Origin: Yuukianura sp. NJ FZ-2021
Lineage: Eukaryota
NCBI GenBank assembly: GCA_046563655.1
Contig: CM102286.1
Coordinates: 10,974,001-11,038,000 of the forward strand
Length of the DNA stretch: 64,000 nucleotides
Direction of reading: 5' to 3'
Shown here: piece after piece, positions 24,830 to 64,000 of the stretch
Position numbering within the stretch: the first letter of the stretch is position 1
How the letters are laid out: every line of letters begins with the position of its first letter
Notes under the pieces: generated by a model
The model's input: the letters and a program-made list of their open reading frames with translations, nothing else
Told to the model about the DNA's origin: nothing
The model's database searches: none
Made by a program: the position numbers and the translations under genes

Positions 24830-25362
24830 CTTTTTTAATTCTATGTCGCAAATAGAATTTTTTTTTTAAATTGAAGATTTAGAACGGCAGCAATGTTGAA
24901 TTTTTGAGGAAAAAAAATGGAAAACTCAAAGTGAACTAAAAATATCGTTCTAATTTTGACGACGTTTCGAAGAGACAATTCCCATTGTACTTTACTTACA
25001 ACTGACAGGGTTCATTAAACCGCAAAGTTCACAAGTGTTCCACGTCTTTACTGTCAACATTACCTACATGTGATGAGAAGCTAAGGAAAAAAGAGCGGAA
25101 AGTTTGAGTTCTCTAATTAGGTACAATGGAACAGAAATCTGAATTGTAAACCGTATTTTTCAATTTGATATTTCAATTTTTAAACGGTCTCCATGTGCAT
25201 GCGCCGCTTTCCTACAGTGTTTGCTTTTGTTTAATACATGTTGGGAATTGAATAACTTTTTAGCTTCAGACGAGTCTCAGTGCGAAACAGCATTTTTGAT
25301 TTAAATTACTAAATTTTAAATTTTTGTAACAAGATTTGTTTGAACAAATTCTATTGCTCGGT

Positions 25363-25824
25363 ATGGCTGGATACTGGTTGGGTTCAGTGAGTCCTGAAGA
25401 AGTGAAGCCCCGATTCTTCTACGAGGAGAAGCTCATTGGCTATGAGGCCTTCCGGAAACGAATAGCGGAGATTGACGAAGTGAACTACGACAATGATCAG
25501 ATTCTCGTAATGTTCATTGGAGAGGGCAATGCTCCATTGGCAGATGACGGTGCGTTCCGTTCTACCAACGGATGGGATCCGGAGTGTCACCTGCTCGAGG
25601 ACGCCGTGGATTTCGTCAAGGTGCGTGCGCAGCCGCAGGGATGGCTTCTGCGCGTCGGCGTTGGCAGTATGGACGAATGGCGAAATCCGCTGAATCCATT
25701 TCGCAGAGATCCACGCATTCGGCTCACAAAACTTCCCACGCTCATGGCTTGGAATACTATGAAGAAAGTGTCGGGCTTCCAGGCATTGCAACTGGAAAAT
25801 ATTCTCGTGATGCTGGATGACTAA
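25363..25824 (+). CDS. TXNDC17/TRP14-like thioredoxin-fold protein with variant active site
   Basis: VGSMDEWRNPLNPFRRDPRIRLTKLPTL matches the recalled TRP14 VG..YWKDPNNDFR...VTAVPTL pattern. WDPEC replaces WCPDC. Intronless. Confidence 0.8.
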   Translation: MAGYWLGSVSPEEVKPRFFYEEKLIGYEAFRKRIAEIDEVNYDNDQILVMFIGEGNAPLADDGAFRSTNGWDPECHLLEDAVDFVKVRAQPQGWLLRVGVGSMDEWRNPLNPFRRDPRIRLTKLPTLMAWNTMKKVSGFQALQLENILVMLDD

Positions 25825-27828: not shown

Positions 27829-29718
27829 TCAAAACGCCCGCGGTAGTGAACCAATAATTAATTTTTCTGCAATCCATGAAACAGTCGCACAGGAAAGCCC
27901 GACAATCCACAAGCAAAAAATCCCAAAGAAACTCCGGAGATTGAGTCCTTTGCTGCCAATTTCTACAAAATTTTGAATTTCCTTCAATTTTTTGGCTACT
28001 GTTGAGTTAGGTGTAGTTCTGAGATGTCGCGATCCTTCAATTCTCTTTCTACGTTCATCAGAAGCTATCCAATGCGCATGAAGTCCTGCTGCGCATGATC
28101 TCCCAATAATTGCTGAAAAGTCTGCGCGAATAGGGTAGCCTTTCCGAAAGGCCCACACAATTCCAATGGCATAGTCAGTGTCATCACTACGTCGAAATGC
28201 CATCGGACTTTGAGACGACACGAGTGACATATTTTCAGCAAGACTAAACTCTCCTGCTTCAATGTAGTCTAGGCAAGCAGAGGAATCAGTCATTAGGGCT
28301 AATGTGATACACTCCGCTGAAGAGTTGACAAGATGAATACGTTTAAAAATGGCTTGATGAGTGGGCTTTTTTGAATTTTTGGTGTAATGATACACCCCAC
28401 CGCCATAGAATCGGAAGAACAGCTTATAGTTGGAGAATGCAAGTTCGGGATGTGTCTTCGGAAGGTTCACGACATCTTCCGGATTCGATAAGGATGAAAT
28501 TAGTTTTGAGCGATAGGCGGTTCCTATGAGAAGGGAAAAGGCGGCCCAAAGACAAAGAAGGGCGCGAAACTGTTTTCGCGGCCACTGAATTAGGCTAGTT
28601 GCTTGATCAAGCAGGATTTTCAAAACTCCGGCCAATGCATTTGAGACTTTTTTAAAATTTGCACCACGACGAGCCGAGATGGGATTGCATGGGCTCAAGC
28701 GGTAGTTGTAATGAAAGAGCACATGCGCAATGACCAAACTGCAGTAAATGAAAGTTGTGAACAAGATGGCGCCCCATAAAGTAGGATTGAATGGGCGGTA
28801 GACTGCGCTCCAGGAAAATCCTTTCGGAGAAACTCTAACGTAGAACACACGACGGTAGATATCGTAGGTCGTACTGTAGTCAACGATGACGTCACGCCAA
28901 TCCAGTGCTCCAATCATAACTCCAAATTCGGCTTTCCCGCTGACAATTTCTCCGATTGCTCCATTCCAAGTTCCATTTTTCAATTTCCACCCAGACCCTT
29001 CTTTACTCGAAGAAAGTCGCAACGTAAAATTGAATTGGGTTGCAGAGAAACGCAACATTTCAAAGATACTCCCTTGACCGTGAATCAAATTTTCGCGGTC
29101 GTCGTTCTGAAACCGTAATCTCTCTGGAGTTGGAGTACTTGACACTAAAATTGTTTTACCACTCAAATGACCTCCGCAGAGTCGTCCATTATCCAAGCAA
29201 CTGTGGTTCAAAATTTGAAAATTTCCTTCCGCCCCAACCGTTACCCGCCAACGGTATCGAAAATGGGACCAAAACGTGTCGCTTTTAGCCCCACACATAT
29301 CGTCTCTTGTCAATACTTGAACAAATTGATCTACTTCTTTCCGAATAAGTCGTCTGAGCAATAGCATACTTATAAAATTTTCTGCGTATTCGCAATTGGA
29401 TAGTGGTGATGAAGGTGTCAGCACAATGGAACAGAAACCGCTGTACTTTTTGTTGAAAAAACGATATGAGTTGATGACTTCAGCTTCGGTAAATTCTCGA
29501 GCAAAGTCTGCAATTGAAGTATTTGAACTTGGAAATTCTTTGATCAATATTTTTGTTACTAATTTAAGGTCAATGACCGCAAGGTGAACTGCGTCAAAAT
29601 CTCCATGTGTGGTAACAATCCACGTGTTATTACAAGTGGAGTCGAATTGAAATGGAAAGGCATGTACAAATACGCAGAGTGGAAACAAATTAAGCCAATG
29701 AATGTTTTGCCACTGCAT
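27829..29718 (-). CDS. Divergent ionotropic receptor (IR/iGluR family), intronless
   Basis: Signal-like MQWQNIHWLNLFPLCVFVHA. S1 GWKLKNGTWNGAIGEIVSGKAEFG, RDVIVDYS. M1 YRPFNPTLWGAIL. M3 LWAAFSLLIGTAYRSKLISSL. C-terminal TM LNLRSFFGIFCLW. Confidence 0.9.
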   Translation of the reverse strand: MQWQNIHWLNLFPLCVFVHAFPFQFDSTCNNTWIVTTHGDFDAVHLAVIDLKLVTKILIKEFPSSNTSIADFAREFTEAEVINSYRFFNKKYSGFCSIVLTPSSPLSNCEYAENFISMLLLRRLIRKEVDQFVQVLTRDDMCGAKSDTFWSHFRYRWRVTVGAEGNFQILNHSCLDNGRLCGGHLSGKTILVSSTPTPERLRFQNDDRENLIHGQGSIFEMLRFSATQFNFTLRLSSSKEGSGWKLKNGTWNGAIGEIVSGKAEFGVMIGALDWRDVIVDYSTTYDIYRRVFYVRVSPKGFSWSAVYRPFNPTLWGAILFTTFIYCSLVIAHVLFHYNYRLSPCNPISARRGANFKKVSNALAGVLKILLDQATSLIQWPRKQFRALLCLWAAFSLLIGTAYRSKLISSLSNPEDVVNLPKTHPELAFSNYKLFFRFYGGGVYHYTKNSKKPTHQAIFKRIHLVNSSAECITLALMTDSSACLDYIEAGEFSLAENMSLVSSQSPMAFRRSDDTDYAIGIVWAFRKGYPIRADFSAIIGRSCAAGLHAHWIASDERRKRIEGSRHLRTTPNSTVAKKLKEIQNFVEIGSKGLNLRSFFGIFCLWIVGLSCATVSWIAEKLIIGSLPRAF

Positions 29719-30966
29719 ATCTTGACTTACTAACAAATAAAAGCAAAATTTTTTCTGAAACTTTTGTCTAGTAGCCGGACACTTATCAAAAGAGTTATTA
29801 TAGTTATAGTTGACAGTTGTCAATTCCGATAGTAACAAAATTACACGGAAAACTTTCAATTTTATCGTACACGTAATTGTTGAGTTGTTACAGCACAACC
29901 CAAAAGACACGCTCCGCAAGCCAAAGTGACAGATTGTCAATTGACAACCCCAAACGGAATCGATTATCGCAATGCATTCAATTCACTGGCATAAACAGCT
30001 TTACCATTTTCCAACACTACTCAATTAATCTATTGTACTAATGGGCTCCTGTCATTCCGCAATCGATTATAGTTGCAGACTATATAGTTCGTTTATTCTT
30101 AAGATTTTGAAAAATCAACAACATTTCTTCTCTCATATAAAGTACCGTGGTCGAAGGGACTTCCCCTCGATCCGAAATTCGAACTTCCACGTGGAAACGT
30201 GGAATTCAAAAAAAAAAAATTTATTTTTAAACTTAAAGCTGGACGAAAGTCCTTTCGGTTGATGGGAGTGATCCCATTTTTGCGTGTTGGGTTGCGCAAT
30301 ACTTCCGAGGTCTTGGGAACAAAAAATTTCCAAAGTTGGACTTGATATTTTCAAACAATTCGTGTCTCTTACCTTATGGTGGATACGGTTTTTGAATTTC
30401 ACGCGAACGCTACAATGAAACCCACCATAACGTAATTCTACCATTCATGGCGACATTTTGGTGTTAGACCCGAGGCATCAGGTTCTCTTGAAAAATTTTA
30501 AACTTTGGTATGAACTCATACAATAATTCATGTTTCTCAAATATAGGTTCTTCGATTTAAAAATTTTTAAGATTGAATTATGAAGTTTTGGAAAAATATA
30601 AAATTAAAAAAACGAAGCTGAGACGAACTGAAATTCTAAAACCTCCAAAAAATTCTGAAAACAATGGTGGCAATTTTTGAATCCGTTACAATGGGAATGT
30701 TTAGTTTGAAAGTTTGCAGGCGATCTTTTAAAAAGAAATAGTCGTTATAGCTAGAGTTATTATTACTAGGACGATTGAACGTGCATCGGGCTAAGCCCCA
30801 GCAAGCATACGAATCATACTGTAACTCATCTATATGGAATATTAAATGAATCATAAAAAATTTAGGGATTTTTTAATTAGGGATTAAATTAGGGATTTAA
30901 AAAAAAAACTTTATTTAGAAAAAACTCTTTTGGCTGGAGTTTTGTATACGAAAACTCTACTACCAT

Positions 30967-34288: not shown

Positions 34289-36891
34289 TTAGTAAACTGA
34301 AACTCCAACATTGTTGCAAACTTCCTCTGATTCTATTGGTGGAAATTGGTAGACTTGTTTTGCAATTTCTTCATCTTCGATAAAGGTCATGCCCAGTCCA
34401 GCTTCCAAATGCTGATTGAATAGAACAAAACATTGGTTGAAATGTAATTTTTTTTTAAATTCAGTCAAGCATACCCAATTAATGTGACAGTGGAAGAACC
34501 AGGCGCCAGGGTTGTCTGTAGTGTACGTAAATACTGCCCATGAATTTCCCAGGGTAAAAGTTGTATCTCGTCTCACTCCATCTGGCGTCAACTTTGATTC
34601 GTCTCTGCTAGAAATGAATGCTCCTGCTTCGGCAGCTCCAGTTCCAAGCACCCAAAAAGAATGGCCTTCAAATTATGAAAAATTATTCTTGTACTTTTCA
34701 AACTTTGAAAAGGAAATTCTAACAAATTCCTTCTGTAGCAGTATCTTACCGTGGAGGTGCCAGGGATGCGGCAGCGGATGATAATTGTTAATGACAACGC
34801 GAATCACCTAAAAATTAAAATTCAAATGTAGATAAAAGTGGCATGAACTATTTACAGAAATTTACTTCTCGTTGCTTTGGGGTGCGGATGGGTCTTGCCG
34901 AGCTTGGAATTTGTTGGTTGTTGATTAGTTGAAAAAGAACTGGGCTTTTGTTCACACTGGCCGGAACAAACGGTTGACCATTCATGCACATGCGCGAAGG
35001 ACTTCCAGCGATTGGACAGTCTGTTACATTGATGGTAATGAGTCGGTCATATTTCGTAGGCGCTTTTCCTTCTACTCCAAATTGCAATGGTGGGCATTGC
35101 ATGTCGTCGAGCAAAGTAGCTGTAGAAGCACTGACAGGAGTAGATGTTGGAAGTCGAGTCTTTTTGACCAACTGCGCATGCTCTTCATCCAGTTTCTTTT
35201 GTAAATTAGTATCAATTTGTGGCGGTTTTTTTGGAAAGAATTTGTCCAAATCCTCTATTGTGTCGGGAGTGATGCCACCAGCTTGGATGATATCGTCCCA
35301 CGGAACGTCTTGGAAATCGGGTCGACCTTGAGCCACTCCGGAAGGAGGGTCATCACGCCCAGGACGTACTGCCCCAGTTGTTACCGACGAAGATGATGAT
35401 GCACTGGCTGCTCCCGATGCCGAAGCAGTGGCTCGACCTTGACGTTTACCGCCACCCTTTCCTTTTGCGTTACCTTTGTTGTCACGTATAGGGTTAGCAT
35501 AGTTGAGTTACACTTTATCATTTTTATTGTTACTTTTAGTGGTTACCTTTTGGTTTAGTTGTAGGTTTCGGTGTAGGGTTTGCAGGGTTTGGCTGGGGAT
35601 TGTCGTTTGACGCAGTTGAATTGCTTGTGTTCGACGTGTACCGCAAAACAGCTCGACCCAAAAGTCCAGCTGATCCTACCGGTATCCCAGAAATTCGGAT
35701 CCAATACTCGTTGCGGGGTTGATCCATCGTAACCAGGATTGAGTACCTCTGTGCTGCTAGAATCGGAATGACATCTACCGCTGGACTTTTGAAAGTGTCA
35801 ACTCCATCCGTTTCAATGACAACCATCTTGTGCCCATCTATGCTAAAGTTGTAGGTTCTTGCGCCAGAGGAATTCAAAATTCGAAACCGGTAGCGTTTTC
35901 CACGCGTGACTTCAACTACAGCTGGACCTTGCATTGTACTGTTACAAGTTTGACCTTTCTCAACCGTTGAACAGTTGAACGTACCGCGAGCGTTGATGAG
36001 TGACGAGTTTGTGTCAGGAAAAATTCCTTGCTTTAGGTACACTTCGCTGACATCCTTAGCTGGACGGTGAATCCAATCGTTGATGGAGATTAGCCGTTCA
36101 TCGTCGTACGAATTTTGCCAACATTCCGCTGGCGAGTTTTTGATAATCAGGAAACCCCAAGCTCCGTCGACGTACTGGTAGGAATGATGAGAATGGTACC
36201 TGAAACCATGGTAAAAAAAAAACGGCGCTAGTTTTGAATTTTAGAATTGTAGTTTTGAAGTTGTTTTTACCAGTATGTCCCAGCTTGGAACACTTGAAAC
36301 TTGTAAATCATAGATGTGTGTTTTATAACAGGGCATTGCGTGATGGACTGTGGACCGTCATAGAATGGTGACAAGTTTTGTTGAATCCCGTGCCAGTGGA
36401 TAGACGTTGGTTCATCTTTGTCTGGAATGTCATTCGTCACACGTACCAGCATGGTTTTACCTACTGTGCATCGCAGGACAGGCCCAGGGAATTGTCCATT
36501 GAACCCAATTATTCGTTTCTGGACCCCATCGGGTGAACCATTGATGTATTGCATACGTATATCATAAATGCAGAGGTCATCTGACTCTGAAATGTCATAA
36601 AAACGCGCCACTGTATCAAAATTCGGTTTCTAATATTTGATGTTTCAACCTACCGAAACCGATAGTGTTGTTGTCGCTAGCATTGACGATACTGACACTG
36701 CCAGTGGTGGTAACGTTCTTGCTTGGAGCAGATAGACTTGGTACCTTGATGTTGCTCAAGCTGTGGTTCAGCTTGGCCCAGCTTTTCCAAAATTCAGTGT
36801 TGCGTGCTTGCCCGGAAGTGGAAGACTGAAAAAATTTAGCAGTTGTCGTCGAAAACAAGAGGAAAACCAGAACAGTTGAACGGAACACCAT
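34289..36891 (-). CDS. Secreted three-domain multicopper oxidase (laccase-like)
   Basis: Signal peptide plus all four Cu-binding motifs across introns: SIHWHG, GTYW|YHSH, HPWHLHG|H, DNPGAWFFHCHINW|HLEAGL. Low-complexity linker between domains 2 and 3. Confidence 0.93.
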
Positions 36892-41073: not shown

Positions 41074-41509
41074 TCAAGTACAAATTCCCGTCGTACTGCA
41101 AGTGTTTCCTGGCAAGCAGTCCACACGACGCGGCCAGTTCGGAATGGTGCCACATTTCGCGCCACGAGTCGCAAAACATTTCTTGCGGGTAGAGTCCCAC
41201 CAAGTATTGAGGTTCGACGGCAAATCAGCACTTGACATCGTTAAAGCTTCCGGACAACGACACCTTCCTTCGAAGCATACAAGATTCGTTTGAGCTCCAT
41301 TACAGTGATCGTTTCCAATACAGAGACTCCCTAGATATTCAAAAGACACAAAAATTATTTCGCCAAAACGCAATGACATAGTTTTAAATCTATACAAAGT
41401 TGCGAATTATACTTTGTACTAATAAATTACCTCTCACAATTTGGCACGTCCCAATTGTTACTGCGACACAGATTACAAAGACCACAGGCAAAAGGCAACT
41501 TGCCTTCAT
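41074..41509 (-). CDS. Small secreted Cys-rich (EB-module-like) protein
   Basis: Signal exon MKASCLLPVVFVICVAVTIG. Exon 2 LCIGNDHCNGAQTNLVCFEGRCRCP...CFATRGAKC...CLPGNTCSTTGIC. Confidence 0.75.
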
Positions 41510-41985: not shown

Positions 41986-44900
41986 TTACATACATTGCGG
42001 AACTGCCGGAGCTTGGCCTTCTGACTCTGAAGCTAAATCATCCTTAACAATATGCTTGTTAGTGGTCGTCGCAACCATTTCAGCATTCATGAGGTTCTCC
42101 AAGTGAGCTGTAAGTTTTCTAACTGTCTGGTTTTCCTGTATAGCGCCAACAGTCACTTGGCTTTTTTCGAAAATGCTTTGAAAACGATTGCGTAGTTCAA
42201 TGGTCATTAGAGAGTCGACTCCAAACGCTGAAAAGAGTTTATCTGGATCCAATTGCTCGGCATCATCAACCCGAAGCGTCGCCTTCAACAACATGCAAAC
42301 AAATTCTTCAATTTTGTTTCGTCTTTCCTGTGCATCGGTTGTTTCTTTGAATTTCGTTCGGGTGAATTTTTCCCCAACATTTGTAGCCGTCACCGAATTC
42401 AAATTGTTAGAATTCAGTTCATCCAAATAATGGCCCAGGTTCACGACCTTTTTTAATATAGCCCAGTCGAAGACATCTACCACGGTACACCGAAGTTTAT
42501 GTTCCTCCATGACCATTTGAAGAGCAGCCAACCCTTGACTTGGAGAGAATGTAATGACTCCGTTCCGATTTCCTTTATAAACTTTTGCATCCGCTGCGCC
42601 TCCAACCTAAAACAAAAATGTTTATGTAATGTTTGTAATATTTTCATTTTTTTCGTTTCTTGTAAATTCATTTCAAAATCCAACGAGTGAACCAGCCCCC
42701 TGCGTTCAGCCCCCTTAGCAACCAACGCCAGCTTTTGTTTGTGACGTCACTCGTTGAAAAATACCGGAATTCGGGGAATAATGATGGCATCCTATAGAAA
42801 CCCATATATTGTTTGATGTTTAGATACGCGCCTCGGATAATAAGCTGACGATTACGGTATTTTTCAACGAGTGACGTCATAAAAAATGCCGTGGTAACCT
42901 AACAAACTTTCTGTTCGCACTACCTGTAGTTATTCTATTTACCTTGGGAGTGAACTAGAAACGCCAGTCAATGCAGAAATACTATTTATAGTAATACCTT
43001 CTGCCACGCGCCGAAGTTGATGCTGCATGCCGGGAGACCCATTGAGTGTCGATAGTGTGCAAATGAATCTAAGAATCCACAAGCGGCTGTATGGTTGCTG
43101 TTTCCTAGACTGCCAAAATTTGATGCTATACTTGAAAACATAACGAAGAATTCAAGACCACAGTCGAGAGTCAACTTGTGCAAATTGATGCACCCTTGAA
43201 TTTTTGGTTGGAAAACCATTTCGAATTTTTCCCACGACAAATTTTGTATGATCCCGGATGCGTACACTCCTGCTGCGTGCATAATTCCGCGAAGCGGCGG
43301 CAAATTTAAACTCTTTAAAGATTCGAAAAGTGCTTCTGCTTCTTTGTAGATACCAATATTTGTTTGAACTGCCAAAGTTCGACATCCATTTTTGTTCATA
43401 CCCTTCAAAGCTTCTTGGGCTTCAACTGAAGGTTTCCTGCGTCCAACAAGCACTAGGTTGGTGGCCCCCAATTTTATCATCCACTTGGCCACTTCCATAC
43501 CGATCCCACCCAACCCACCGGTGATAATGTACGTACTCTGTGAATTGAAAAGACGTTTTTCAAAATGGACGCGGCCTTCCGGGGAAATTTTGGTTTCTGG
43601 AATGGTGATCACAACTTTCCCAATGTGTTTTGCTCCTTGAAAAAAAGAGAAAGCTTGCTGAATTTTGTCTATTGAAAATGTTTGGTGTGGAAGACTGGTG
43701 TAAATGCCATTTTTCAATTCGGTTTCAATTTTTCTCATAAGATGGCAGAATTTCTCGTTGATCTGCAACATGCCATGAGATACGTCTACTAGAAAATATT
43801 TTACATCTGGACGTATTGTCTTCACTTCGTCTTCGGTCCAGGTATTTACTTTCCCAATTTCAACAAATCGCCCATTTTGAGCACAAGCTCTGAGAGACGC
43901 TTCTTTGAAGCCAGAACCAGTGAGCGAGTTAAGGACAACATTCACTCCAGCTCCATATGTGTCTTTCATTATTTCGTCCCCAAAATCCGTAGTTCTGGAG
44001 TGGTAGACATGTTGAATTCCAATTGATCTTAGGTACGCTCGTTTCCTTTTGCTGCCTGCCGTGGCAAATATTTCCGCGCCAAGACGTTTGGCCATTTGAA
44101 TCGCCGCGAGGCCAACCCCTCCTGTGGCTACATGTATCAGAACTCGCTCCCTTTCATCTAGATTTGCAAGTTCTTCGAGTGCATAAAAACATGTGAGAAA
44201 TGCAACTGGAATTGTAGCTGCCGAGGTAAATGTCATTTCGGGCGGTTTTCGTACCAAACACCGAGAGGAGACAGTGAGGTGAGAAGCCAATCCATTCCCA
44301 GGCACAAAACCAAAGACAGCGTCACCGAGGTTAAATTTGGTGCAAGTGGGACCAACGGCTGAAACGATTCCAGCTATTTCTAACCCTGGTTCTTGAAGAT
44401 CAGTTATCGAATCCACAAATCCTTCTGGTTGAAGGATGAGAAACAAATCTCTGAAGTTTAGTCCCGTTGCTCGTACAGCTACTTCAACTTCGTCTCCCAC
44501 CGGATCCATTCTCGAAGCAGGAGAAATTTCCAAATCATTCAGACTTTGGCTAACTGGCTTCGTTACTTGAAAGCAAGTCGAATTTGGAAACGCAAGTGCA
44601 CGCGTTGAATTTTTATCAAGTATTAATCTTTGGTGGAAAATTGTGTCTTGCCGTATTGCTCTGAACACTTCATCGCTTTCCCTGGACCAGATCATCGCAA
44701 AAGTCTCTTCTACTTCTCGTTCAAAATCGACTTCATCCTGTGCAAGGTCAATGACCTTGAGTTTAAAATCTCTGTGTTCGTTTGCAAAAGATCTAATGAA
44801 GGCTGCAGCCGTTCCAGCAACTGGGTTTCCTGGTCCAGTGTCTCCAACGTAATAAACTCCACGCGTCACCAAAACTAATTTTGATTTTGTAGTTTCGTTT

Positions 44901-47900
44901 TCCTGGGCTGAAGAAAGTTTTTGGCAAAGTTCGAAAAATTCTCTGCATTTTTGTTGACTTCCGTCAGAATGTTCATGAGTCTCAGTCCATAGAAAAAGCA
45001 CTCCTTCTAACATTTCATACATGTCAATTCCTGTATCGTAGGAAACGACTTTACGTCCATAATATGACAACTTCGAAGTCAGGTTTGATTTCAAAAAAGA
45101 ACAATCTCCATGTACAATCCACGTTGATTTATATGGAGCTGAGAGGACCATAGTAGGCAGAGCTGAAGCCAATTTATGTCCAGCTACGACGCCAAAGTGT
45201 TCATCAAATGCTGAGAATGTTCTTGTTCCACCAAATCCAGCTCTCTCGAATGCAATCTTCCATTTTTCTGTAGTCAAAAGTGGTGAACCAGTTCTACCAT
45301 CCGTTGACTTCCACCATTCTTTCAGGAATCCGAACGATAAATTGACGTACGTCAAATCCTTAAACATTTCACCCAATACAATAATGCCTCCTGGTCGCAG
45401 AACAATGTTTAAATTTTTCAGAGTTTGTACAATATCTGCTGTTGCATGAATTACGTTGGCAGCAATGATAATGTCAAATTCGTCTGGAGGAAAGCCTTGA
45501 CTCAGAGGATCTTCCTCAATGTTGAACAATGCAAAGGTTACGCCCTTTTTGAATTTCTTTTCCGCTTCATTCAGAAAAGAAGGTGAAATGTCTGTGAAAG
45601 TGTACTGGCATGAGACCTTGAGCTGCGTGAGTCCTTCAAAAATCAAACTGCAACAAATTCCTGATCCTGCGCCAACCTCCAAAATTTTAAAGGCTCCATT
45701 TCCGGTTGACGAGTTGCTAATGCAGTCCAGAACCAATGAGGTTGGCAGGATACTAATTTCTTTGAATCCTTCTCCTAATAATTTTTTTCAAATTCAAATT
45801 AATTCAATTCAAATTAATTAATCAAATCAATTCAAATTCAGTTTTACAAATGAATTCAAATGTAACATTGTTTTCGAGATAGAACAGGTTGATTTCTTTT
45901 AGACTTTGATTTTATAATAAAAAAGAGAAAAAAAAAGGAGTTTCAATTACCTTCAGAATAAAATCTCAAAGCACCAATTTCAGACGAGTTTTCTGTAAAG
46001 AGGTATGAAGTAGGAGCAATTTTCCCTTGAAAAACGCTTGGAAGATGACGGCCACATCGTTTTGCAAATTGAGAAATCACACTTTCCTTTTTGTTTGTCA
46101 GTTCGAAATGATGTCCGAATCCATCCGAAATTTCTTTCTCTAATTCTTCCGAGGTGGGAAGTTTTTGTAACACTTCATAAGTTCCATCTTTAGTTTTTTG
46201 CAAATAGGAAATCTTAGCTAAAATTTCCATGACCTTCCCAGACTTCACAATTCCCAATCCGGGAGCCAACTTTGCCCAATCACAAATATTTAGGTTTTCT
46301 CCAACGTCGGGCCAAGGCCATTCAGATTCAGTAATTCCCTTAATGAGGAACATCGTAAATAATTTGTCGATGATTTGAAAGCTACGCAATGTTGCGACCT
46401 CTTTATCGGAAATAGATTTTAGCGTGTGTTTCATGAATCCGGATAGTTTTATCTCAATTAACTTTGACTCGACTTGACTTCGTGTAATCCTGTTTGTTGG
46501 ACGCCAAACTTCTTCCAAAATTGTCGGTAATAATTCAGTTTCTTGACATAATGTTTGCAAGAATCGGAATGGTGTCGTGCTAATAAATTTGACTCCTTCC
46601 ATTGTTGTCAAAATGTTTCCTAAATCATTTGCCAACGTTATAGTACGTGCTCCTTCTGAAATTGTAAGGTACGCAAAAACTTTTCGTGTAAATGTCCCCG
46701 AGTAGAAACTGAATTTTTTGATTGCAACTGGCAACTGCAGTCTGCTGGCTTTATCAGTTTCTTTGTCAGTCAACATTGCATGAATAACAGAAGTTTGGAG
46801 CATTGCGTCGAGAACGATTGGATGACAAATGTAAGAATTAGAATCTTCTGCAGGAATTTCAATTTCCGCTAAAACAGCATCCTGTGCAACCCAAGCTCGA
46901 GAAATTGATCGAAATCTCTTTCCAAACTGGTATCCGACCTCCACCAGTTTATCATACGTTGTGTGCATTGACTCCAAACAGTCTAATGTTTGCTGTATGG
47001 TTTGTAAGTCAATAGACGTGATGCCTGTGAGACGACTTGGAGTAATTGTCGCTATTGCGTGTCGTTTCCACTGCTGTGGAGTGTCACGAGATTGCTCGTG
47101 GATTGTCACTTCGAACTTGAGTCTTTCTTTGTCAATTGATTGCACAATAGTTTGAATTTGACAGGATCTGTTCAGTTCTAGGGCAGCCTCGATTGTGAAG
47201 TTTTCAATGCAAAATGGAACTCGAACCTTTCCGCCCTGCAAAACGTGATACCCGGCCGCCATTATGGTTTCAAGGAAAGCCGCTCCAGGAAAAACAATTC
47301 TCTCCGCAATACGATGATCACCGAGAAATTTAAGATTTCTGGTTGATAGAACTTGAGTGAAGATGTGTGCTGGAAATGGAGTCGGTAGTGGCGCTCCAAG
47401 TGTTGGGTGTAGAGACATGGGATGCTGTGAGCCAACGTCAACATCTTCTCGTTGAAACCAAAATTTTTGACGTTGGAATTGATACGTAGGAAGAGTCAGT
47501 TTACTAGCGCCAGAAAACCAATTCGTCCAGGAAATCTCAGCACCAGCTACAAACATCTTGGCCAGTGAATTCAAAATAGAAGCCAAGTCATCTTCGCTTC
47601 TGCGTAGTGAAGGACAAAATGCGTCCTCTTCCGAACCCTGCAGGTTTGACATAGTCAAGGCTAACAAAGTCGGTTGGGTACCGATTTCGACAAAGACTTT
47701 TGGGGAAGGGACAAGTCTTTCTAGTTGGATTACAGCGTCACGAAATCTAACCCTGTCTCGCAAATGACGCGCCCAGTATTTGGAAGAAAGTTCACCCAAT
47801 TCTAATTTTCGCCCAAATGTACTGGAGATGTAGCAACAATTGAAGTCGTGTGTTTTAACTTCCGCCGCGATTTGTTCGAATTCTATTGATATTGGATCCA

Positions 47901-50900
47901 TAAGTTGAGAATGAAAAGCGTGAGAAGTTTTCAAAAAGTTTGCTTGGAGTCCGTTGGATTTACAAAAGTTAGCAAACTTTTCCACGTTATCTGAGGCGCC
48001 AGACACCACGACTTGCTCGTCGGAATTCTCGGCTGCAACATCAATCCAAGAATCTGCTGAGGATTGAATGAATTCTTCAATCAACTTGCGGACATCTTCT
48101 GGCGAATTTTTTAAAGCCAACATTTTCCCGGCTTCGAGTGAATGGACGAGTTTACTTCTGCTAGCAACTAGTTTCATCCCATCTTCAAGTGACAGCACGC
48201 CAGCGCAAACTGCCGCACAGAATTCACCCGCGCTGTGACCTAGGACAACGTCAGGGTGAATTCCAAAAGAGTTCCACAGTTGAACCAGTGCAAACTGAAC
48301 TGAAAAAATGGCCGGTTGGCAGTAGATGGTTTTGTCCAACAAGGCAGCATCTCCCCACAGAACTTCCTTCAGTGAACACATCAAATGATTCTGGAAAAGT
48401 ATTTCACATTTGTCCAGCGCCGTTCGAAAAACTGGCGAATCATTGTAAATGCTTTTCGCCATTCCGAAGTACTGTGACCCTTGACCTGTGAATAGAAAAA
48501 CCACTTTCGGTTTCTGCTGCACCGCCTTTCCTTTGATGAAACTTCTCTGTTTTAATTTTGACACGAGTTGCTCCGTATTATTGACTACAAGTGCAATCCG
48601 GTTGGCCATGCTTGCCCTTCCAGTATTTAGAGTATATGCGATGTCATACAATGTAAGTTCTGGATTCTGCTCAAAATGGGAAATGTGTTTTTCACAAAGA
48701 GATCCCAAGGCTTCTTCGGATTTGGCAGAAACCTGTATCATTTGTAACAAGTTTGAATTGGGTTCAAGATTTTTAGGTGTGCGCTTCGGTGGCTCTTGAA
48801 CGATAATATGAACGTTGGCTCCACTCATGCCGCTCGAACTAGTGGCTGCAATCCGCCTTTCTTGTTTCCATTCTGTCACTTCCAATGGAATAATTCCCGG
48901 AATTTTGTCGAGATGGATTTTGGGATTTAAATTTTTAAAGTGGAGGTGCGGTGGTATCTGTTTGTGTTTGAGACAAAGCAGAATTTTTATAAGTCCAGCA
49001 ATTCCTGAGCATCCTTCAGTGTGTCCAATGTTGGTTTTCACAGAACTGACAAGGAGCGGTTCTGCCCGATTTTCGGAATAAACTTGTTCAATTGCTCCCA
49101 TTTCCGCTGGATCTGAAATAATGTGTATAAAACTTATTCAAAAGCTCGTTAAAGTTACAGCCTTCGAGGTATTTTTGTTTCCGTTAACAAGGTTAATTAA
49201 GAAGCAGTGCCATTTACTTGGCTTCGTTAGACTACATTTGGGTTTCCTTTGGTACTAATAGAGATTTAAATATGCTACATCGTATATGCTCGGTTATTCC
49301 GCCTAACCTAATAAATAGGTACAATCTCTTGCAATTAAGAAAAAATTAAACTCCATTGTTGTAAAGATTTCCATTGTTATGGTTATGGGGAAGGGTATGG
49401 GGGCAAGTGACTATAGGGTCATGGGGGAAGGATATAGGGGAGAGGGTGGGAGGAGGGGGGTTCGGAAGCGGGGGTGGATGAGATGACGTCATTATGTCAG
49501 AAACGTTTTACGCAGATGCAATTGCTGATGAGGGCAGCCATTTTCAAAACCCGAGCATTCCCATGGAGGTACATGAAAACGTACATGGAGAATTAGGAAA
49601 GTACATAATTTCGCTACCTCCTGCTGGCGTTCCTGTTCCATGTGGCTCGATGAGAGTAACATCGCGAGGCTGAATGCAAGCATCAGTCAACGCCTCCCGG
49701 ATTACCCTTTTCATGGCATAAAGATTTGCAGTTCCGTAGCTTGATGGCCCGTTGTTATTTAACCCAATTCCGCGAATTACGCCGAGAATATTATGACCTT
49801 CGCGAATGGCGTCAGGCAGGGGTCGCAGCACTACTGATGCAATTCCTTCAGCCCGAGCATAACCATCGGCTCTAGAACGGAAAAGTTACTTTAAGAAGTA
49901 TGATTTTATAATTTTAGCTGTTATGATTCCTCACCTCGCGTCGAACGATTTGCACTTGAAATCTTTTGCAAAGGTTGGCGCGTCCGAAATTGTTCCGCCA
50001 CCAATTGGATTAAGGCTGCGAAGTACTAGGTTTACTCCAGCGGCAATTGCAATTTTGGAGCTTCCATTGCGCAAGTTTTGGCAAGCAAGGTACAAAGCTG
50101 TTCCGCTACTCGAACAACCGGTTCTATAAAATAAAAAATATACGTGTTAAATATTTCGTTTTTAAGAATTCACAGTACGAGCAAAACGGGATAATTTTTG
50201 TATTTAGAGGTTCTCACTCTGTACAGTAGTTTGGTCCATGAAGTCCAAGCAAATTAGAAATTCGTCCAGAGGTTGTGCTGAAAGTATTTCCCAGGTAGAC
50301 TCGAATGTAGTCGTCTGGATCTAGTCCATACTCTGGAAACCAACTCTTGTACTCAGATTGCCAAATACCTAAATATACTCCCGTGTCACCTCCACGCAAG
50401 TCGTCTGGATTGATGGCAGAGTTTTCGAGACTCTCCCAAATCACTTCCAGAAGAAGACGTTGCTGAGGATCCAAAAACGGTGCCTCACGAGCACTAATTC
50501 CAAAAAATTTAGCATCAAATTCATCTATTGGGCATTTCAAAAATCCCGCCTGAAAATTTTTTGTATCGTCGTTTAGGTGGCGTGATCTATTGGATGGGAA
50601 CGGTCCAATGGGATTTCGACCACTGATGAGCAACTCCCAAAGTTCATCGGCATCATTTGCTCCAGGAAATCTGCAACTCATGCCCACCACTGCAATTGCA
50701 TTTTTCAAATCCTCCCGGTGGTCCTCTCGTTCAGTACCATTTACCGTGACGTGTCCATTTTTATTTAGTTGATACCTTTCTGCGGATTTCAAAAGATACG
50801 TTTTTGTACCGTCGTCCTGTTTAAAAAAAAGTTTGAAATGTGTTATTCAACTTATTAGTTACTTTGTTAGATAGTATATTTTGGCAATGAATTTCGTTTG

Positions 50901-53347
50901 AAGCTGGAGTAAAAAGTGTTACTATATTTTACTTGTATTTGCTGAACTTGTGGCATAATTTCGGTTTCAAATGTAGCCATCCAATTTTGTTTCATTTCTT
51001 CACAATAAAATATCTTGCACGAAGACGGTGCAGTAGCAGCATTGTTATCTTGCGAGGCATAAGAGTCTTCATTGCTGGACAAACCTTGCATGTCTCTATC
51101 AAATTTATTTCAAATAAAAATTTTAAAATAGTTGTTACTAAATTGAAGCTGTGCTTCTATAAATGTTTCCATCTTTACGAGTTTTTTCCATCCACTTACA
51201 TCAGCTTTTCTGAGGCAGACTCAAGGATTTGATGTCTTGAATTGCGAAGGACAGAGGAATATTTAGAGCTCAAAATTTCCATCGCATGCCCTATCACAAA
51301 GAGGGAACCTTAAATTTACTTCCAGTTATTAAGTACTACTTAAATTTCGCTACTTTGCTAACGTTATGGTTTGAGGTTGTCTGTCTGGCCAGCCATTTGT
51401 CCGTCCGTCGACGGCAATTATCTCGGAAACGCTCAACAATTCCGGGAACTTTTTTCATTAATGAACATCGGGTCGCGCATAGGGTTCGATGCTGAATACA
51501 TTCCGGCGTGCGAACTCTTTCCGGGTCAAAGGTCAGGGTCAACAATTTTTCCCCCCAGTAACATGGAAAGTGACCCATACAAAAGTTGTTCATGCATTGA
51601 GATGAACTCTTGTGTTCAGCGTGTGACCACAAGTGACCACCTCCGTGTCAAACGTCAGTAATTTTATCGTTCATAAACATAATGCAGCGCCATCTCTTGC
51701 TTCGCTACTTTAGACTCCGGTTACGACCGGATTTATTAAATAGCGAAGGCTATTTGATAATAAGATTCGTGGGCGTCCGTTTCTCCTTGAAAACATCAGA
51801 ACAATTATCCCTGGAACCATTATTGGAAAAATTTCAACTGCGTCACCATGTCATGACCCGGACCTATTACGGAATATCACCAGATTGATGACTTTTTACT
51901 AGGTCAAAGGTTAAGGTCATGCACCTTTCCAATATAAAACCGGGAAAGGCAACCCCCCGCTCCCACGAAAAGTGTGGCAACCCACACTCCCCCATGGGGA
52001 TGCCGATTAGAGGCGGGAACCCACCACGCGCTCTAAGAGTTCCCGCCGTGCACTACTACCTCCGCAGTATACTACCTGGGTTAAAGGTCAGTGGGTCCTT
52101 CGCTACTTACGTACCCTCGGTTTATTACAACCAGAACTTGTTTTCTTCTATTTTTGAACGTAGGCTTACCTCGCAGATTTTTTTGGCTTAGTTTCACCAG
52201 TTGATCAAATTCCTCTAGACTCGGTTTGAACACGACAACCTTCGATGAAATTTTTATACCGCAGTCAGCAATGTCTTCAACAACAGCCGAGAACGACGGA
52301 TGCAAAAACAGTTCATCCGAATTCTTGTGCATCTGTAAGACAGCAATGTCCATACCAAATCATTAAAGATAACTACCAAATGAAAAATTCTCTGCTTAAA
52401 ATTAATTCTGGTTTGTTGATTCAAGTATGGTTAGTTAGGCATTGCTGAAAATAAAGGTTCGCTTGAAATCATAGTTGTCACATCCCGTAAAGACTGGAGG
52501 ACTTACGTAGGTCATAGGGTGAACGTAGACACACTTAATCCAATTGCGCAAACTCCAAAGCCAAAACACGCCATGCTCTTTGTTCCCCACTTCGCTTGAC
52601 TCAAACCGCAAAACCGTATCAAATTCACGATTTAAGAGTTTTCTGAAATTCAAATAAAAATCCAATTTTGAAGGCGACGTTTGGCTGAAATCAAACTGAA
52701 CGGAGCTCTTTTGTGGTAAGATCAGTACGTAACATATATGCCGAGTTTGACTCCAAATCTAAACCGAATGGAATACTTACAGCGTCACCGACCTCATTTT
52801 CTATATTATCGTAGTTAAGTTTTATGTTCTTTAAGTATAGGTAGTAAAAAAAAAAAGAAAAAGTTGGCAACAATATTCCTTTCGCTTTAAACAGCTTTAA
52901 AAGTTCTGACAACGTAATTCTATCAAGTCATAATTATAGTATTCACTATTAGAGCAGTTTTTTGTTGTTGCAAGCGGTGTTTATAAGTTTAATTATCAGC
53001 ATAAAGTCAAGGAAAGAAATTAACTTGACCTATTAGTTCTGTTGTTAAGCATGCGTAACTTTCAAGCATTTTCATTTTTGCTACTCTTCCTCACAGACAA
53101 AAAAACATGGTTTTACCTTATCTCATTTGAAACGTCTTCCGAGATTACAATGACCAAGGGTTTAGTTGTCACCGAATTTCGGATTGATCTAGCGAGCACC
53201 AACGCTCCCCAAGCTTCTTCCTCATTGCTCGCCAACGTCACCCAACACTCGTCTTCTACATGCCAAATAAATACCGATAAAAAATGACAATCTATAAAAA
53301 TGCATAAAGTGTATGCTTTATAGAATTTTTTGGTAACTACCCTTCAT
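41986..53347 (-). CDS. Glycogenin-like (GT8) domain fused to a reducing type I polyketide synthase: GT8-KS-AT-DH-MT-ER-KR-ACP, ~2,770 aa
   Basis: Exons 53347-53341, 53255-53117, 52642-52507, 52332-52170, 51290(or 51308)-51200, 51095-50933, 50816-50218, 50123-49935, 49871-49618, 49112-45951, 45774-42998, 42606-41986 join in one frame. KS TGCSSS/EPHGTGT/NIGHTE; AT GHSAG/HAFH; DH DHRIAERIVFPG/LDAMLQ; MT LEVGAGSG; ER GGVGLAA; KR TGGLGGIG; ACP GVDSL; no TE. PKS identity is near certain; the fusion is inferred. Confidence 0.85.
42691..42946 (-). mobile_element. ~256-bp interspersed non-autonomous repeat, copy 1 (PKS last intron)
   Basis: Near-identical inverted copy at 62575-62830. Internal 25-bp inverted repeat TGACGTCACTCGTTGAAAAATACCG. 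Confidence 0.85.
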
Positions 53348-61048: not shown

Positions 61049-61479
61049 TTACCTTGAATTTGGACTGGGTTCATTTCTTCACTTCTCGCATTAGATGATA
61101 CGAATTTTATTTATTTTTGCAAAAATGAGTCGCCAAATCATTAAATTAAAACTTAATGAAATAAACTTTCATACGCAAGAATAAGAAAACAATTCAAGAA
61201 ATTAAAAGTTAATTTATTTTTAAACGCTTCACAAATTTTACTCCTGCTACTTAAAACTAAATTTTAGGCTTGAATACAGCAAACAATTGTGTAACTTAAG
61301 AATTTTTGTCAGTATGAACATGGATTCACAATTTTTCAAATCCGGAAATGAAACTCTTTTTTTCGATTTTTTTTGCAGCTTTTTTCGACGTTTCAACTCA
61401 TTTCCAACCGTTTTCCGCAAAAAAAAAGCATGTGGATAGGCTCTCTCTTGCATATTTTTGAACTTTTACTTTTTGGAAA

Positions 61480-61900
61480 TGAAGGGAAGAGGTTTGAACT
61501 GCTGTGCGGGTGAACGTTTTTTGCTCTTGGCGTCTGTATCCACTAATTTGTGGAAAAATTTTGAGAAATGGAAAAGTTGTGAGGAGATTTGCGGGGCGCA
61601 GAATTTCGAAAATTTCGTTGCTGACGTGTTTTTGAAAACTTTGACTCCAGGTCATCAATGTCCATTGGCGGGTCACCAAAGTTTTGAGGCTAAAATGATG
61701 AAAACGTTGAGCAGCACTGTAAATGACGTCACCGCGAGGCTAGAGATTCCCATAGCAAGAATAGCTTTTGAAAAAAAAAACAATCATAAAGGACCCTATA
61801 CCTATTAGTACACTATTTGCCTTGGCATTTTACGTTAGAAAAATGAAATTTCCGAACTCTCCATGGAATTACCAAAGGCAAAATTCTCTGACGTAAAACT
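61480..61900 (-). pseudogene. Degenerate cytochrome P450 fragment
   Basis: NEIFEILRPANLLTTFPFLKIFPQISGYRRQE closely matches the exon at 63738-63880 of the neighbouring CYP. VREFAFGNSME-like remnant near 61860-61895. No other exons seen. Confidence 0.7.
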
Positions 61901-62061: not shown

Positions 62062-64000
62062 TTATGCCCGAGAGACAAACCTGACTACGCATGGTTTTGG
62101 AAGAATTGAAAGTGTTACAGCTCCAGGTTCGAGTGATGGTTCATGCCCTTCTTTGACCTCAAGTGAAAAAGTCAACAGAAGAGAAACCACAAAACGAAAT
62201 AAAGTATCCATTGCCATTGTTTCTCCCGGACAAACGCGTTTTCCTAAAAAATTCAAAATCTCAAAGTCGAAATTTCCAAAAACCGTAATCCCTATCCTGC
62301 ATAACTGCACAAGTGATGTAATAACTTATGTAACCGCACGACTTATGTAATCCGAGCGTAACATAGAGTTATAAAGCTTGTTTAACTCGAAATTTGGATT
62401 ATTTTCTCTTAATAATAACTTCTTTTTGCAAAATTTCAAACTTTTTGAAAACAGCACATCTGATACGGCTCCGTGGCGTAAGCAATTCAAATCCAAAACT
62501 AGTATGACTCAGCAATGTGAAAATTGAAAAATTTCAAAAAAATATTTTGAAAATCAACAAAATTGGTACAAAGGCAAGGTAAATAGAATACTACAGGTAG
62601 TGCGAACAGAAACTTTGTTAGGTTACCAAGGCATTTTTTTATGACGTCACTCGTTGAAAAATACCGTAATCGTCAACTTATTATCCGAGGCGCGAATCTA
62701 AACATCAAACGGTATATGGGTTTCTATAGGATACCATCATTATTCCCCGAATTCCGGTATTTTTCAACGAGTGACGTCACAAACAAAAGCTGGCGTTGGT
62801 TGCTAAGGGCGCTGAACGCAGGGGGCTGGTACAAAGGTTGTTTTTTCGTGTTTTTAAAAAAATTAAGAGTTATGACAAAACCTCTTAGAGCATTTGTATA
62901 AATGGTCGCTATAGCAACCTTGGTTATACCTATATATAACTCACCAAATCCGAAACAACTTGCTCGTTCCTTCTTTTCAGCGTTCAAGGTCATCTCATCT
63001 GGGTCAATAAATCGCTCTGGTCGGAATTGTTCTGGGTCACCCCAGTACGCAGAATCGTCGAATACGGGACGCAAGTTGTTGAGAATGCAAGTGCCTTTCG
63101 GAATGACGTAGCCCTCGTATGCAACGTCGCAAGTCGTTTGTCGCGGTGGCGGCATACTCCTAAAAGGACTGTGACGGATCACTTCCAAAATGACGGCAAT
63201 GGTGTACGGCATTCTACATCAAACGTAAATTTGTGAATAATGTTCAAAATTTGTACATTTTGTAAAGAAAAAAATGTGTTTTACAAAAAAGGAGTACTTG
63301 TTTGTAGCAGTGAGTGGTATGTATTTCGATCCATTTTCAGAAACGTTCAAAATTTCTTCGCGCGCTTGTTTTTGAACTTCTGGAAACAAAGTGAGGTAGA
63401 TCAGAGTCCAACTCATTACGGTACTCGTAGTTTCGCTTCCGGCCAAAAACAGATCCATGATAACAGCAATTAGTTGCTCCTCTGTTCAAAATTTTTAAAA
63501 TTTAAGATTCGATTTTTTTTTAAATATAGCTATCGCTGTACCGGTCATGATTGTATTGGGATTCCCACGATTTTTTTCAATTTCATCCAGAAAAACTTCC
63601 ACAAAACTCTCCGCTTTCTGGTCACTTCGCCCGAGTCTTTTCATTTTCGCATCTTCCACTAAATCCTGTCAGCAAAAATTAGAAAAACTGCTGTTACTAA
63701 AATTTTTAACTTTTTAACGTTTTTTTTTTGAAATTTTACCTCCATGACCTTCCAGCATGCTTTGTTAATTTCCTCTTGGCGTTTGTATCCACTCGTTTCC
63801 GGAAAAAATTTGAGAAACGGAAAAGCTGTGAGGAGATTTGTGGGGCGCAGAATTTCGAAAATTTGGTTGTTGACATCGATTTGTCTCTGGATAAATTCGG
63901 ACTTGGGGTCAAACCGGTACCCACCAACCGAATTCCATATGATGTTGAGTGAAGCAATACCGAACCGGTTCGAATCGACTTTCCACACTCCGTCGGAATT
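62062..64000 (-). CDS. Cytochrome P450, clan 2-like (5' part outside the window)
   Basis: I-helix DLFLAGSETTS, EVIR (ExxR), FRPERF, heme motif FGFG|KRVCPGE across an intron. Stop at 62062. Confidence 0.93.
62575..62830 (+). mobile_element. ~256-bp interspersed non-autonomous repeat, copy 2 (CYP last intron)
   Basis: Inverted near-identical copy of 42691-42946. Confidence 0.85.

Follow-up and report, generated by a model that had tools for sequence, protein, structure and literature searches.

Animal polyketide synthase (PKS) genes have often been dismissed as contamination or taken as plain bacterial imports. The closest known relatives of the gene in the window (the whole 64,000-nt stretch of DNA analysed) are type I PKSs of springtails (Collembola), for example Orchesella cincta P0123; O. 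dallaii P0124, P0126, P0131 and others; and Folsomia candida P0154, P0171, P0184 and P0194. They are collinear with the window gene (glycogenin-like domain, short linker, KS-AT-DH-MT-ER-KR-ACP) and likewise lack D-x-D, but their identity to it is only ~35%, and they run to 3000-3200 aa with a terminal reductase (PF07993, NAD_binding_4) that the window gene does not have. Their glycogenin-like domain of ~245-285 aa matches the whole catalytic domain, whereas the domains of the window and of a related gene on contig L001 match the springtail profile significantly at positions 5-153 of 261 only, plus weak remnants beyond.

Glycogenin-1 and glycogenin-2 (4ueg, 1ll2, 3t7o) are homologous to the window domain over the GT-A domain (first strand-helix, N-x-D-E-L-F, last helix), but the window has H-P-M instead of DxD, its D-Q-G and H-F..K-P-W segments have either degenerated or disappeared, and it receives no PF01501 score. 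The solved glycogenin chains that were matched are of 263-501 residues, whereas the window domain is fused to a PKS. Only their catalytic domain is matched (chain residues 2-269), and the glycogen-targeting role once suggested for the window domain therefore finds no support.

In cyanobacteria and myxobacteria, reducing type I PKS modules have the same KS-to-ACP order, including the C-methyltransferase, but differ from the window gene, which has introns. The PKS of Moorena producens (P0186; ~33% identity over ~2580 aligned positions) aligns from window residue 273 only, so it is without the glycogenin-like domain. Other N-terminal PKS domains are known before the first KS, namely docking domains, the GNAT loading domain of CurA and the SAT domain of fungal non-reducing PKSs; they share the position and a similar proposed role (structural or priming), but their fold and origin are unrelated.

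Gene model and PKS domains

We consider it likely that the locus is one gene, encoding a fully reducing type I PKS of iterative type (2761 aa) headed by a glycogenin-descended domain of ~233 residues, for which we propose the role of a structural module. On the minus strand (53347-41986), 12 exons with GT-AG junctions join into one open frame of 8286 nt (Table 1), whose single stop is the terminal one; the spliced frame runs without a stop from the ATG of e1 into KS. The glycogenin-like 5' part consists of six small exons (699 nt, the first 233 aa) and the PKS part of six exons (7587 nt), two of them ~3 kb long, and the introns crowd toward the 5' end. All peptides and junctions quoted in the original prediction were found at their coordinates on the minus strand; the in-frame link e4-e5-e6-KS was that prediction's own choice and is not a statistical test in its own right. 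The exon of lowest certainty is e5, and the weakest of the PKS junctions is the 5' junction of exon 11, at 45759. With an alternative acceptor, at 51093, e4 could skip e5 and join e6 in frame.

Table 1. Exons of the window gene, with matches to the springtail N-terminal profile (exons 2 to 6) or to Pfam families (exons 7 to 12)
Feature	Content	Coordinates	Strand	Evidence
Exon 1 (e1)	7 nt, ATGAAGG then gtagtt; putative start codon	53341..53347	-	Start inferred; L001 has 7-nt ATG counterpart
Exon 2 (e2)	Start of glycogenin-like domain, W-V-T-L ... A-L-V-L-A region	53117..53255	-	E 5.2e-16, profile positions 4-51
Exon 3 (e3)	3' end is the glycogenin DxD position, here V-H-P-M-T-Y	52507..52642	-	E 3.5e-3, profile positions 50-101
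Exon 4 (e4)	N-x-D-E-L-F motif (conserved) and next strand; phase 1 end	52170..52332	-	E 1.3e-5, profile positions 103-156
Exon 5 (e5)	Degenerate equivalent of glycogenin D-Q-G-L-L-N region	51200..51290	-	E 1.8, profile positions 173-193
Exon 6 (e6)	Low-complexity linker, then last helix of glycogenin-like domain; phase-0 joint to KS exon	50933..51095	-	E 2.7
Exon 7	Linker and KS N-terminal part	50218..50816	-	PF00109 2.1e-41
Exon 8	KS segment with active-site cysteine, T-G-C-S-S-S	49935..50123	-	Translation and junction reading
Exon 9	End of KS-N, start of KS-C	49618..49871	-	PF02801 5.5e-11
Exon 10	3162 nt; KS-C, KS-AT linker, AT, DH	45951..49112	-	Acyl_transf_1 (PF00698) 5.5e-58, PKS_DH_N, PS-DH
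Exon 11	2762 nt; C-methyltransferase, ER, KR	42998..45759	-	Methyltransf_12 4.6e-19, ADH_zinc_N 3.6e-20, KR 2.6e-56
Exon 12	ACP and stop codon (41986-41988)	41986..42606	-	PP-binding (PF00550) 8.8e-10

From residue ~273 onward, Pfam recognises a complete reducing type I PKS (KS-AT-DH-MT-ER-KR-ACP), with KS, AT and ACP in one polypeptide, each above the Pfam cut-offs (PF00109, PF02801, PF00698 and PF00550), a full reducing loop (DH, ER and KR) and a methyltransferase. The translation reads T-G-C-S-S-S in KS, G-H-S-A-G-E in AT and G-V-D-S-L-M in ACP, which correspond to the PKS active-site motifs KS cysteine, AT G-H-S-x-G and ACP D-S-L. When springtail C-terminal reductase regions were searched against the window, the best tblastn match had E 0.64, and the frame ends after ACP.

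Glycogenin ancestry of the N-terminal domain

The claim that the N-terminal exons are homologues of glycogenin-type GT8 proteins was borne out. The spliced window N-terminus matched P0247, a GT8 protein with PF01501 above the cut-off and the best PF01501-bearing protein among those tested (E 1e-21, 70.6 bits), as well as a profile built from 14 springtail PKS N-termini (E 7e-34), and the profile itself matched glycogenin-2 (4ueg_A, E 7.7e-33, profile positions 5-247). A PDB search with the same profile returned 19 glycogenin sequences (glycogenin-1/2) at E 8e-33 to 7e-31, with 6mw5 as the next family at only 4e-12, and the window N-terminus matched all 149 of the 149 retrieved glycogenin-like proteins at E <= 0.01. 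Judged by these sequence comparisons, the likeness to glycogenin is well beyond chance. Pfam recovered the predicted KS but not the predicted GT8 domain: PF01501 was found in 0/5 single-exon window pieces and in 0/5 springtail N-termini at E <= 1.

Taken singly, e5 and e6 are not significant against the profile, yet they lie in the correct order. Inclusion of e5 added 12.8 bits to the match with P0241, the alignment crossing the e4/e5 joint, which supports this "bridging" exon as homologous coding sequence; likewise, the helix of e6, predicted to be the last helix of the glycogenin domain, lines up with L001, springtail proteins and glycogenin.

The DxD position, placed via profile alignments to glycogenin and to the window N-terminus, reads H-P-M in the window and D-P-T in L001. 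D-x-D occurs in 0/16 aligned PKS-linked domains; the first Asp is retained in five of the 16, and P0123 and P0244 have D-x-H, so the loss of metal binding may not be universal. D-x-H serves metal binding in some GT-A enzymes. The window His occupies the position equivalent to Asp102 of glycogenin-1. PMC5203857 describes DxD as coordinating Mn2+, essential and present in all GT8 enzymes, and states that Asp102His in human glycogenin-1 abolishes autoglucosylation. The window domain retains the first half of the GT-A fold and the last helix, and the acceptor-side half is mostly gone: the D-Q-G and H-F..K-P-W segments of glycogenin are unconserved in the springtail profile and reduced or absent in the window, and no more exons for the missing half were found in the window introns. 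Because DxD and most of the C-terminal half are lost, sugar transfer by the domain is unlikely, and the domain most likely no longer transfers sugar.

Probable joining of the domain to the synthase

Contig L001 carries a 46%-identical gene with the same exons and splice phases and a 7-nt ATG exon, adjoining its KS exon. Phases are equal in L001 and the window at e2, e3 and e4, and at the phase-0 e6/KS joint; the L001 ATG exon (ATGAAAA then gtgaga) lies ~80 nt 5' of its exon 2, the gap from e4 to the KS exon is only ~520 nt, and the e5-like ORF is out of frame with e6. Window and L001 are 40.8% identical (58/142) in the N-terminal domain and 44-56% in the PKS exons (44.4% in exon 10), values that suggest purifying selection on the domain. 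The peptide of e2 also has its homologue, in identical phase, in L001.

A glycogenin-like domain precedes KS in 19/239 retrieved PKS proteins (18 named springtail proteins and P0142). In 16 of the 19, most or all of the domain is present and ends 20-40 residues before KS, and P0142 holds the C-terminal part of the domain and the PKS within one product; those of these records that come from springtails are gene models. A single BLASTP HSP spans window residues 4-2728 and O. cincta P0123 residues 17-2790 (35%), and a further HSP pairs window residues 1-2730 with residues 3-2782 of P0124. The L001 exon set, the 19 PKS proteins and the P0123 HSP are comparative evidence that upholds the proposal that the GT8 exons and the PKS belong to the same gene, and it is probable that the window exons are spliced into one mRNA. 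The architecture is not confined to this genome and is already in public springtail protein records, where the domain sits unlabelled because Pfam is blind to it, the analysis in PMC10764717 was limited to KS domains and PMC5490193 listed antiSMASH clusters. No description of a glycogenin-like domain heading a PKS was found in the literature searched.

Alternatively, there could be two genes side by side at the locus, one of them short, degenerate and glycogenin-like (e1-e4, perhaps e5), ending in the 880-nt intron, and the other a PKS beginning at an in-frame ATG (51091-51089) where e6 begins, an arrangement that we regard as unlikely. That ATG makes a PKS-only transcript possible, and a short stand-alone product is conceivable because the intron 3' of e4 contains AATAAA (52126-52121) and an in-frame stop (52081-52083) would be reached if the e4 donor were read through. 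Short proteins of the same lineage without a PKS are also on record (P0241, 221 aa; P0250, 242 aa; P0305, 252 aa; P0288, 595 aa and no Pfam family), but these may be pieces of larger genes. The first in-frame Met of L001 e6 sits within the conserved helix, so an independent PKS start is not conserved, and since e6 encodes the last helix of the glycogenin-like domain, a split between two genes would cut the domain. The union of domain and KS in 16 springtail gene models, and of its C-terminal part with the PKS in P0142, likewise argues against two genes. Within exon 7, no in-frame ATG was found 5' of the KS domain.

Role and history of the domain

Under the one-gene reading, an ancestral glycogenin (the GT8 enzyme that primes glycogen by glucosylating itself) would have become the N-terminal domain of a PKS, where it may serve as a structural module, e.g., a dimerising or scaffolding cap above the KS dimer, a role that can be likened to that of the docking or loading domains found at the N-terminus in other PKS classes. 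A structural module without catalysis is the likeliest reading of the domain, though the structural role itself is put forward tentatively, at somewhat less than even chances.

We think it improbable that a glycogenin gene was captured at the 5' end of a horizontally acquired, intron-poor PKS to give a new class of N-terminal module, a working part rather than just a cap, in an animal-specific PKS lineage extending beyond springtails. If so, the module could bind nucleotides or sugars as a primer or gate and thereby select or tether the starter, with metal binding preserved in D-x-H paralogues, and sugar-primed or protein-primed polyketides could result.

It is quite improbable that the fused domain has kept an enzymatic or ligand-binding function, i.e., that it is a glycosyltransferase or a UDP-sugar/nucleotide-binding module priming, glycosylating or gating the polyketide. 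Conservation is highest in the first, nucleotide-binding half of the fold; none of the 14 springtail rows departs from the W of W-V-T or the N-x-D of N-x-D-E-L-F, the window has both, and D-x-H stands at the DxD site of P0123 and P0244. This is opposed by the absence of D-x-D from all 16 aligned domains, by the window H-P-M with His where an Asp-to-His change inactivates human glycogenin-1, and by the decay of the D-Q-G and H-F..K-P-W counterparts. There is hardly any chance that the upstream exons are a decaying, untranslated glycogenin pseudogene lying beside the PKS by coincidence: catalytic motifs are lost, the domain lacks its middle part and Pfam does not recognise it, but all six exons are open in frame with canonical splice sites, the protein identity to L001 (41%) is similar to that of the PKS domains, L001 shares the e2, e3, e4 and e6/KS phases and the 7-nt ATG exon, and the domain is retained in 19/239 related proteins.

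The favoured reading, one gene for a glycogenin-headed PKS, fits the gene structure, in that a eukaryote-type 5' end of small exons ahead of a large-exon PKS is what a chimera of a resident and an acquired gene may look like; the exon pattern also anchors the synthase firmly in the animal genome. The domain offers a sequence marker for this glycogenin-headed PKS lineage. It is a candidate for a new way of building the N-terminus of an iterative PKS, and it is a clear example of a housekeeping enzyme turned into a pseudo-enzyme domain.

On the tree, 67 ordinary GT8 rows fall on one side of a branch with SH-aLRT 96, and on the other side are 22 rows, namely every one of the 17 PKS-linked domains, two short proteins and three unlabelled rows; the branches of the PKS-linked rows are long, and the grouping of these rows could be partly an artefact. 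The domain belongs to a separate and rapidly evolving lineage among glycogenin-like domains, found before KS, within the retrieved set, in springtail PKS proteins and in at least one other animal (L001). The window clusters with L001 and P0241, outside both springtail groups.

Gene model and glycogenin-type homology of the N-terminus

The window DNA is animal-like (G+C ~40%, genes spliced), and the six small 5′ exons of the PKS gene (e1–e6, 233 aa) join into an open frame that runs from the ATG through to the KS exon, which starts at 50816. With the remaining PKS junctions placed by homology, the full gene model comprises 12 exons (8286 nt, 2761 aa) and has its sole stop at the end; the KS cysteine, the AT motif G-H-S-A-G-E and the ACP motif D-S-L were all found in the translation. 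No second copy was found within the window.

Features of the PKS gene and its neighbourhood in the window
Feature	Position	Strand	Evidence
Small 5′ exons e1–e6	53347-53341, 53255-53117, 52642-52507, 52332-52170, 51290-51200, 51095-50933	minus	GT-AG borders throughout
Six PKS exons (7–12)	50816 to 41986	minus	Pfam, every domain above cut-off
KS		minus	Pfam on exon translations, PF00109 2.1e-41, plus PF02801
KS-AT linker		minus	Pfam, above cut-off
AT		minus	Pfam, 5.5e-58
DH		minus	Pfam, above cut-off
C-methyltransferase		minus	Pfam, 4.6e-19
ER		minus	Pfam, 3.6e-20
KR		minus	Pfam, 2.6e-56
ACP		minus	Pfam, 8.8e-10
Cytochrome P450 exons	61398-61739, 62724-63218, 63659-64000	minus	PF00067 1.3e-19
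Cysteine-rich ORF	41074-41406	minus	weak EB-module match, E 2e-4, below cut-off
Multicopper oxidase, three Cu-oxidase domains	34289-36629	minus	
Ionotropic-glutamate-receptor-like, 717-aa single ORF	27829-29982	minus	sub-threshold Lig_chan matches
TXNDC17-like thioredoxin	25330-25824	plus	
C2H2 zinc-finger protein	2-919	minus	

The GT8 similarity originally predicted for the N-terminal exons was borne out. The spliced window N-terminus matches all 149 retrieved glycogenin-like proteins at E ≤ 0.01, including P0247, which carries PF01501 above cut-off (70.6 bits, E = 1e-21), and it matches a family profile of 14 springtail PKS N-termini (E = 7e-34, profile positions 5-153). Pfam matched none of five single window exon pieces at E ≤ 1. 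Pfam likewise found no GT8 in five springtail PKS N-termini, the one sub-threshold match over both sets being Mannosyl_trans3 (E = 0.0044), and exon 2 alone had no match in the protein collection (proteins of 80-2000 aa). Among solved structures, the family profile matches glycogenin-2 (4ueg_A, E = 7.7e-33, positions 5-247) and, at E ≤ 7e-31, 18 more chains of glycogenin; Skp1 galactosyltransferase follows as the next family (4e-12). The N-terminus of P0123, an Orchesella cincta PKS, used alone as query, matched 485 proteins at E ≤ 1e-3 among 1.84 billion (best 5e-22), and PF01501 was carried by 10 of the 13 matches tested. Taken together, the spliced-protein, profile, solved-structure and library matches indicate, at the level of sequence, that the N-terminus is truly homologous to glycogenin and specifically of that type.

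Comparative evidence on the probable fusion of the domain to the PKS

When the 1064-aa exon was compared with longer proteins, the matches were mostly bacterial multi-module PKSs, and only P0029 was informative. This protein, the sole close relative found at first, maps to L001, a contig with a 46%-identical PKS gene. Upstream of its KS exon, L001 has a 7-nt ATG exon followed by counterparts of e2, e3 and e4 in the window's phases, and its helix exon joins KS in phase 0, with everything from the ATG exon through the KS joint packed within 1.2 kb. The two N-termini are 40.8% identical (58/142) and the PKS exons 44-56%, so the domain's evolution resembles that of the remaining enzyme. Two related contigs were also seen in the collection that includes L001: L002 has a paralogue (best segment 81% identical to P0029), and L004 has a PKS 3′ part at 6862-10474 (46% identical), with neither KS nor glycogenin-like exons found in the 6.8 kb upstream of that match. 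L004 therefore added nothing as a third locus for comparison.

The predicted combination of GT8 and KS recurs elsewhere: by profile, the glycogenin-like domain is present in 19 of the 239 proteins retrieved with PKS queries, 18 of them named O. cincta, O. dallaii or Folsomia candida and one, P0142, without a name. Most or all of the domain is carried by 16 of these proteins and ends shortly ahead of KS; the springtail entries come from gene models. The Logan-assembly protein P0142 combines the C-terminal part of the domain with a whole PKS in a single 3053-aa product. No PF01501 was seen in the precomputed domain lists consulted for related PKS proteins. In BLASTP, a single HSP aligns window residues 4-2728 with residues 17-2790 of P0123 (35%), whereas the alignment with a cyanobacterial PKS (P0186, Moorena producens) starts only at window residue 273. 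The domain is probably fused to the PKS, and the case for this is a comparative one.

Separate products could be read from the same exons. A short product could end after e4, where 52126-52121 reads AATAAA and 52081-52083 is a stop in the same frame, and short proteins of the same lineage exist, possibly as pieces of longer genes (P0241, P0250, P0305, P0288); a PKS-only product could begin from the ATG at 51091-51089. Against both stand the 16 springtail gene models with the domain shortly ahead of KS.

A maximum-likelihood tree was built quickly from 89 domains; its rows from matches of the P0123 N-terminus excluded envelopes <180 residues and comprised at most the first 70 passing, by id number. 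All 17 PKS-linked rows fell on one side of a branch (SH-aLRT 96), where P0241, P0244 and three short or mid-length proteins that carry no label joined them, and 67 ordinary GT8 rows fell on the opposite side; the tree is unrooted and its branches are long. The window grouped with L001 and P0241 (96). In P0246 (1766 aa), DH, MT, ACP and reductase domains come after a glycogenin-like N-terminus, and Pfam found neither KS nor AT; the product is a KS-less variant, or else its gene model is truncated.

Degeneration of the domain and its putative role

At its N-terminus, this complete reducing PKS carries a glycogenin-derived domain that lacks DxD and that constraint has maintained. At the DxD site, two chained alignments equate L-D-A-D-T of glycogenin with V-H-P-M-T of the window, and in the family alignment none of the 16 PKS-linked domains has D-x-D, the first Asp being kept in 5/16 and the second in 1/16. 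The motif is described as essential to Mn2+ coordination and present in all GT8 enzymes, and Asp102His abolishes autoglucosylation (PMC5203857); the window residue at the Asp102 position is His. P0123 and the glycogenin-like P0244 read D-x-H at this site and may represent a subgroup that still binds metal. The tree pairs the two at a basal fork that has weak support and was marked as a join of long branches.

Past profile position ~153, no significant similarity was found in the window or L001, and when the introns were scanned with the profile in all three minus-strand frames, no hidden exons that could supply the domain's missing half were found. By alignment, exons 5 and 6 are remnants of the domain. 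Exon e5 had been proposed as a bridge to e6, and its inclusion adds 12.8 bits against P0241, the alignment spanning the e4/e5 joint; the e6 helix, proposed as the glycogenin domain's last helix, does align with the last helix of L001, the springtail proteins and glycogenin. Inclusion of e5 is nevertheless the least certain point, because the in-frame path of L001 leaves out an e5-like ORF and a second window acceptor at 51093 would permit the same skipping. No other intron in the 5′ part is as long as the e4-e5 intron (51291-52169; 880 nt), which contains repeat-like stretches of higher G+C; L001 has ~315 nt at the equivalent place.

Glycogenin is a dimer. The domain would have lost glucose transfer and would have a structural role, for which the most plausible form is a cap that dimerises or scaffolds the enzyme in front of the KS dimer. 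Alternatively, it may still bind nucleotides or sugars to some residual extent, the D-x-H paralogues being the likeliest to do so. The glycogen-targeting function suggested originally was dropped, since the match to glycogenin is confined to its catalytic domain.

Relation to known PKSs and genomic neighbourhood

At ~35% identity, the gene is a divergent representative of a PKS lineage that is otherwise known from springtails. The springtail proteins compared here end in a C-terminal reductase, whereas the window protein ends after ACP, where the frame stops, and no reductase domain was found downstream within the window; the glycogenin-like domain is also more reduced in the window. Capture of the 5′ end of a resident gene by an intron-poor PKS fits the exon pattern: the domain has six exons over 699 nt and the PKS six over 7587 nt. 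Introns are likewise concentrated at the N-terminus in mollusc PKS genes, in a study that analysed KS domains alone (PMC10764717). In F. candida, 30 type I PKS clusters were reported and mostly called horizontal transfers, in an account whose consulted text does not mention glycogenin (PMC5490193). The consulted portions of PMC5490193, PMC8460440, PMC13389473 and PMC10764717 make no mention of a glycogenin-like N-terminal PKS domain, and the architecture was not found described in the literature consulted on PKS with glycogenin, glycosyltransferase family 8 or Collembola/springtails. The glycogenin-PKS architecture is already in public records, without a label.

Upstream of the PKS gene, similar F-E-I-L-R-P-x-N-L-L-T segments are found in two of the three P450 exons, as would be expected if P450 paralogues lie there in tandem. 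The cysteine-rich ORF lies directly downstream of the PKS stop, outside the PKS frame. A near-identical ORF segment of ~34 aa, ending in L-V-E-K-Y-R-N-S-G-N-N-D-G-I-L, occurs twice, at 42666-42797 (plus strand) in the intron that separates PKS exon 11 from exon 12 and in the tail of 62724-63218 (minus strand) adjoining a P450 exon, and looks like a dispersed repeat. A tandem array at 3019-13398 (144-bp unit, 72 copies, 91% matches) has long stop-free minus-strand frames repeating a 48-aa unit; its Pfam matches look spurious because no single matched stretch passes alone.
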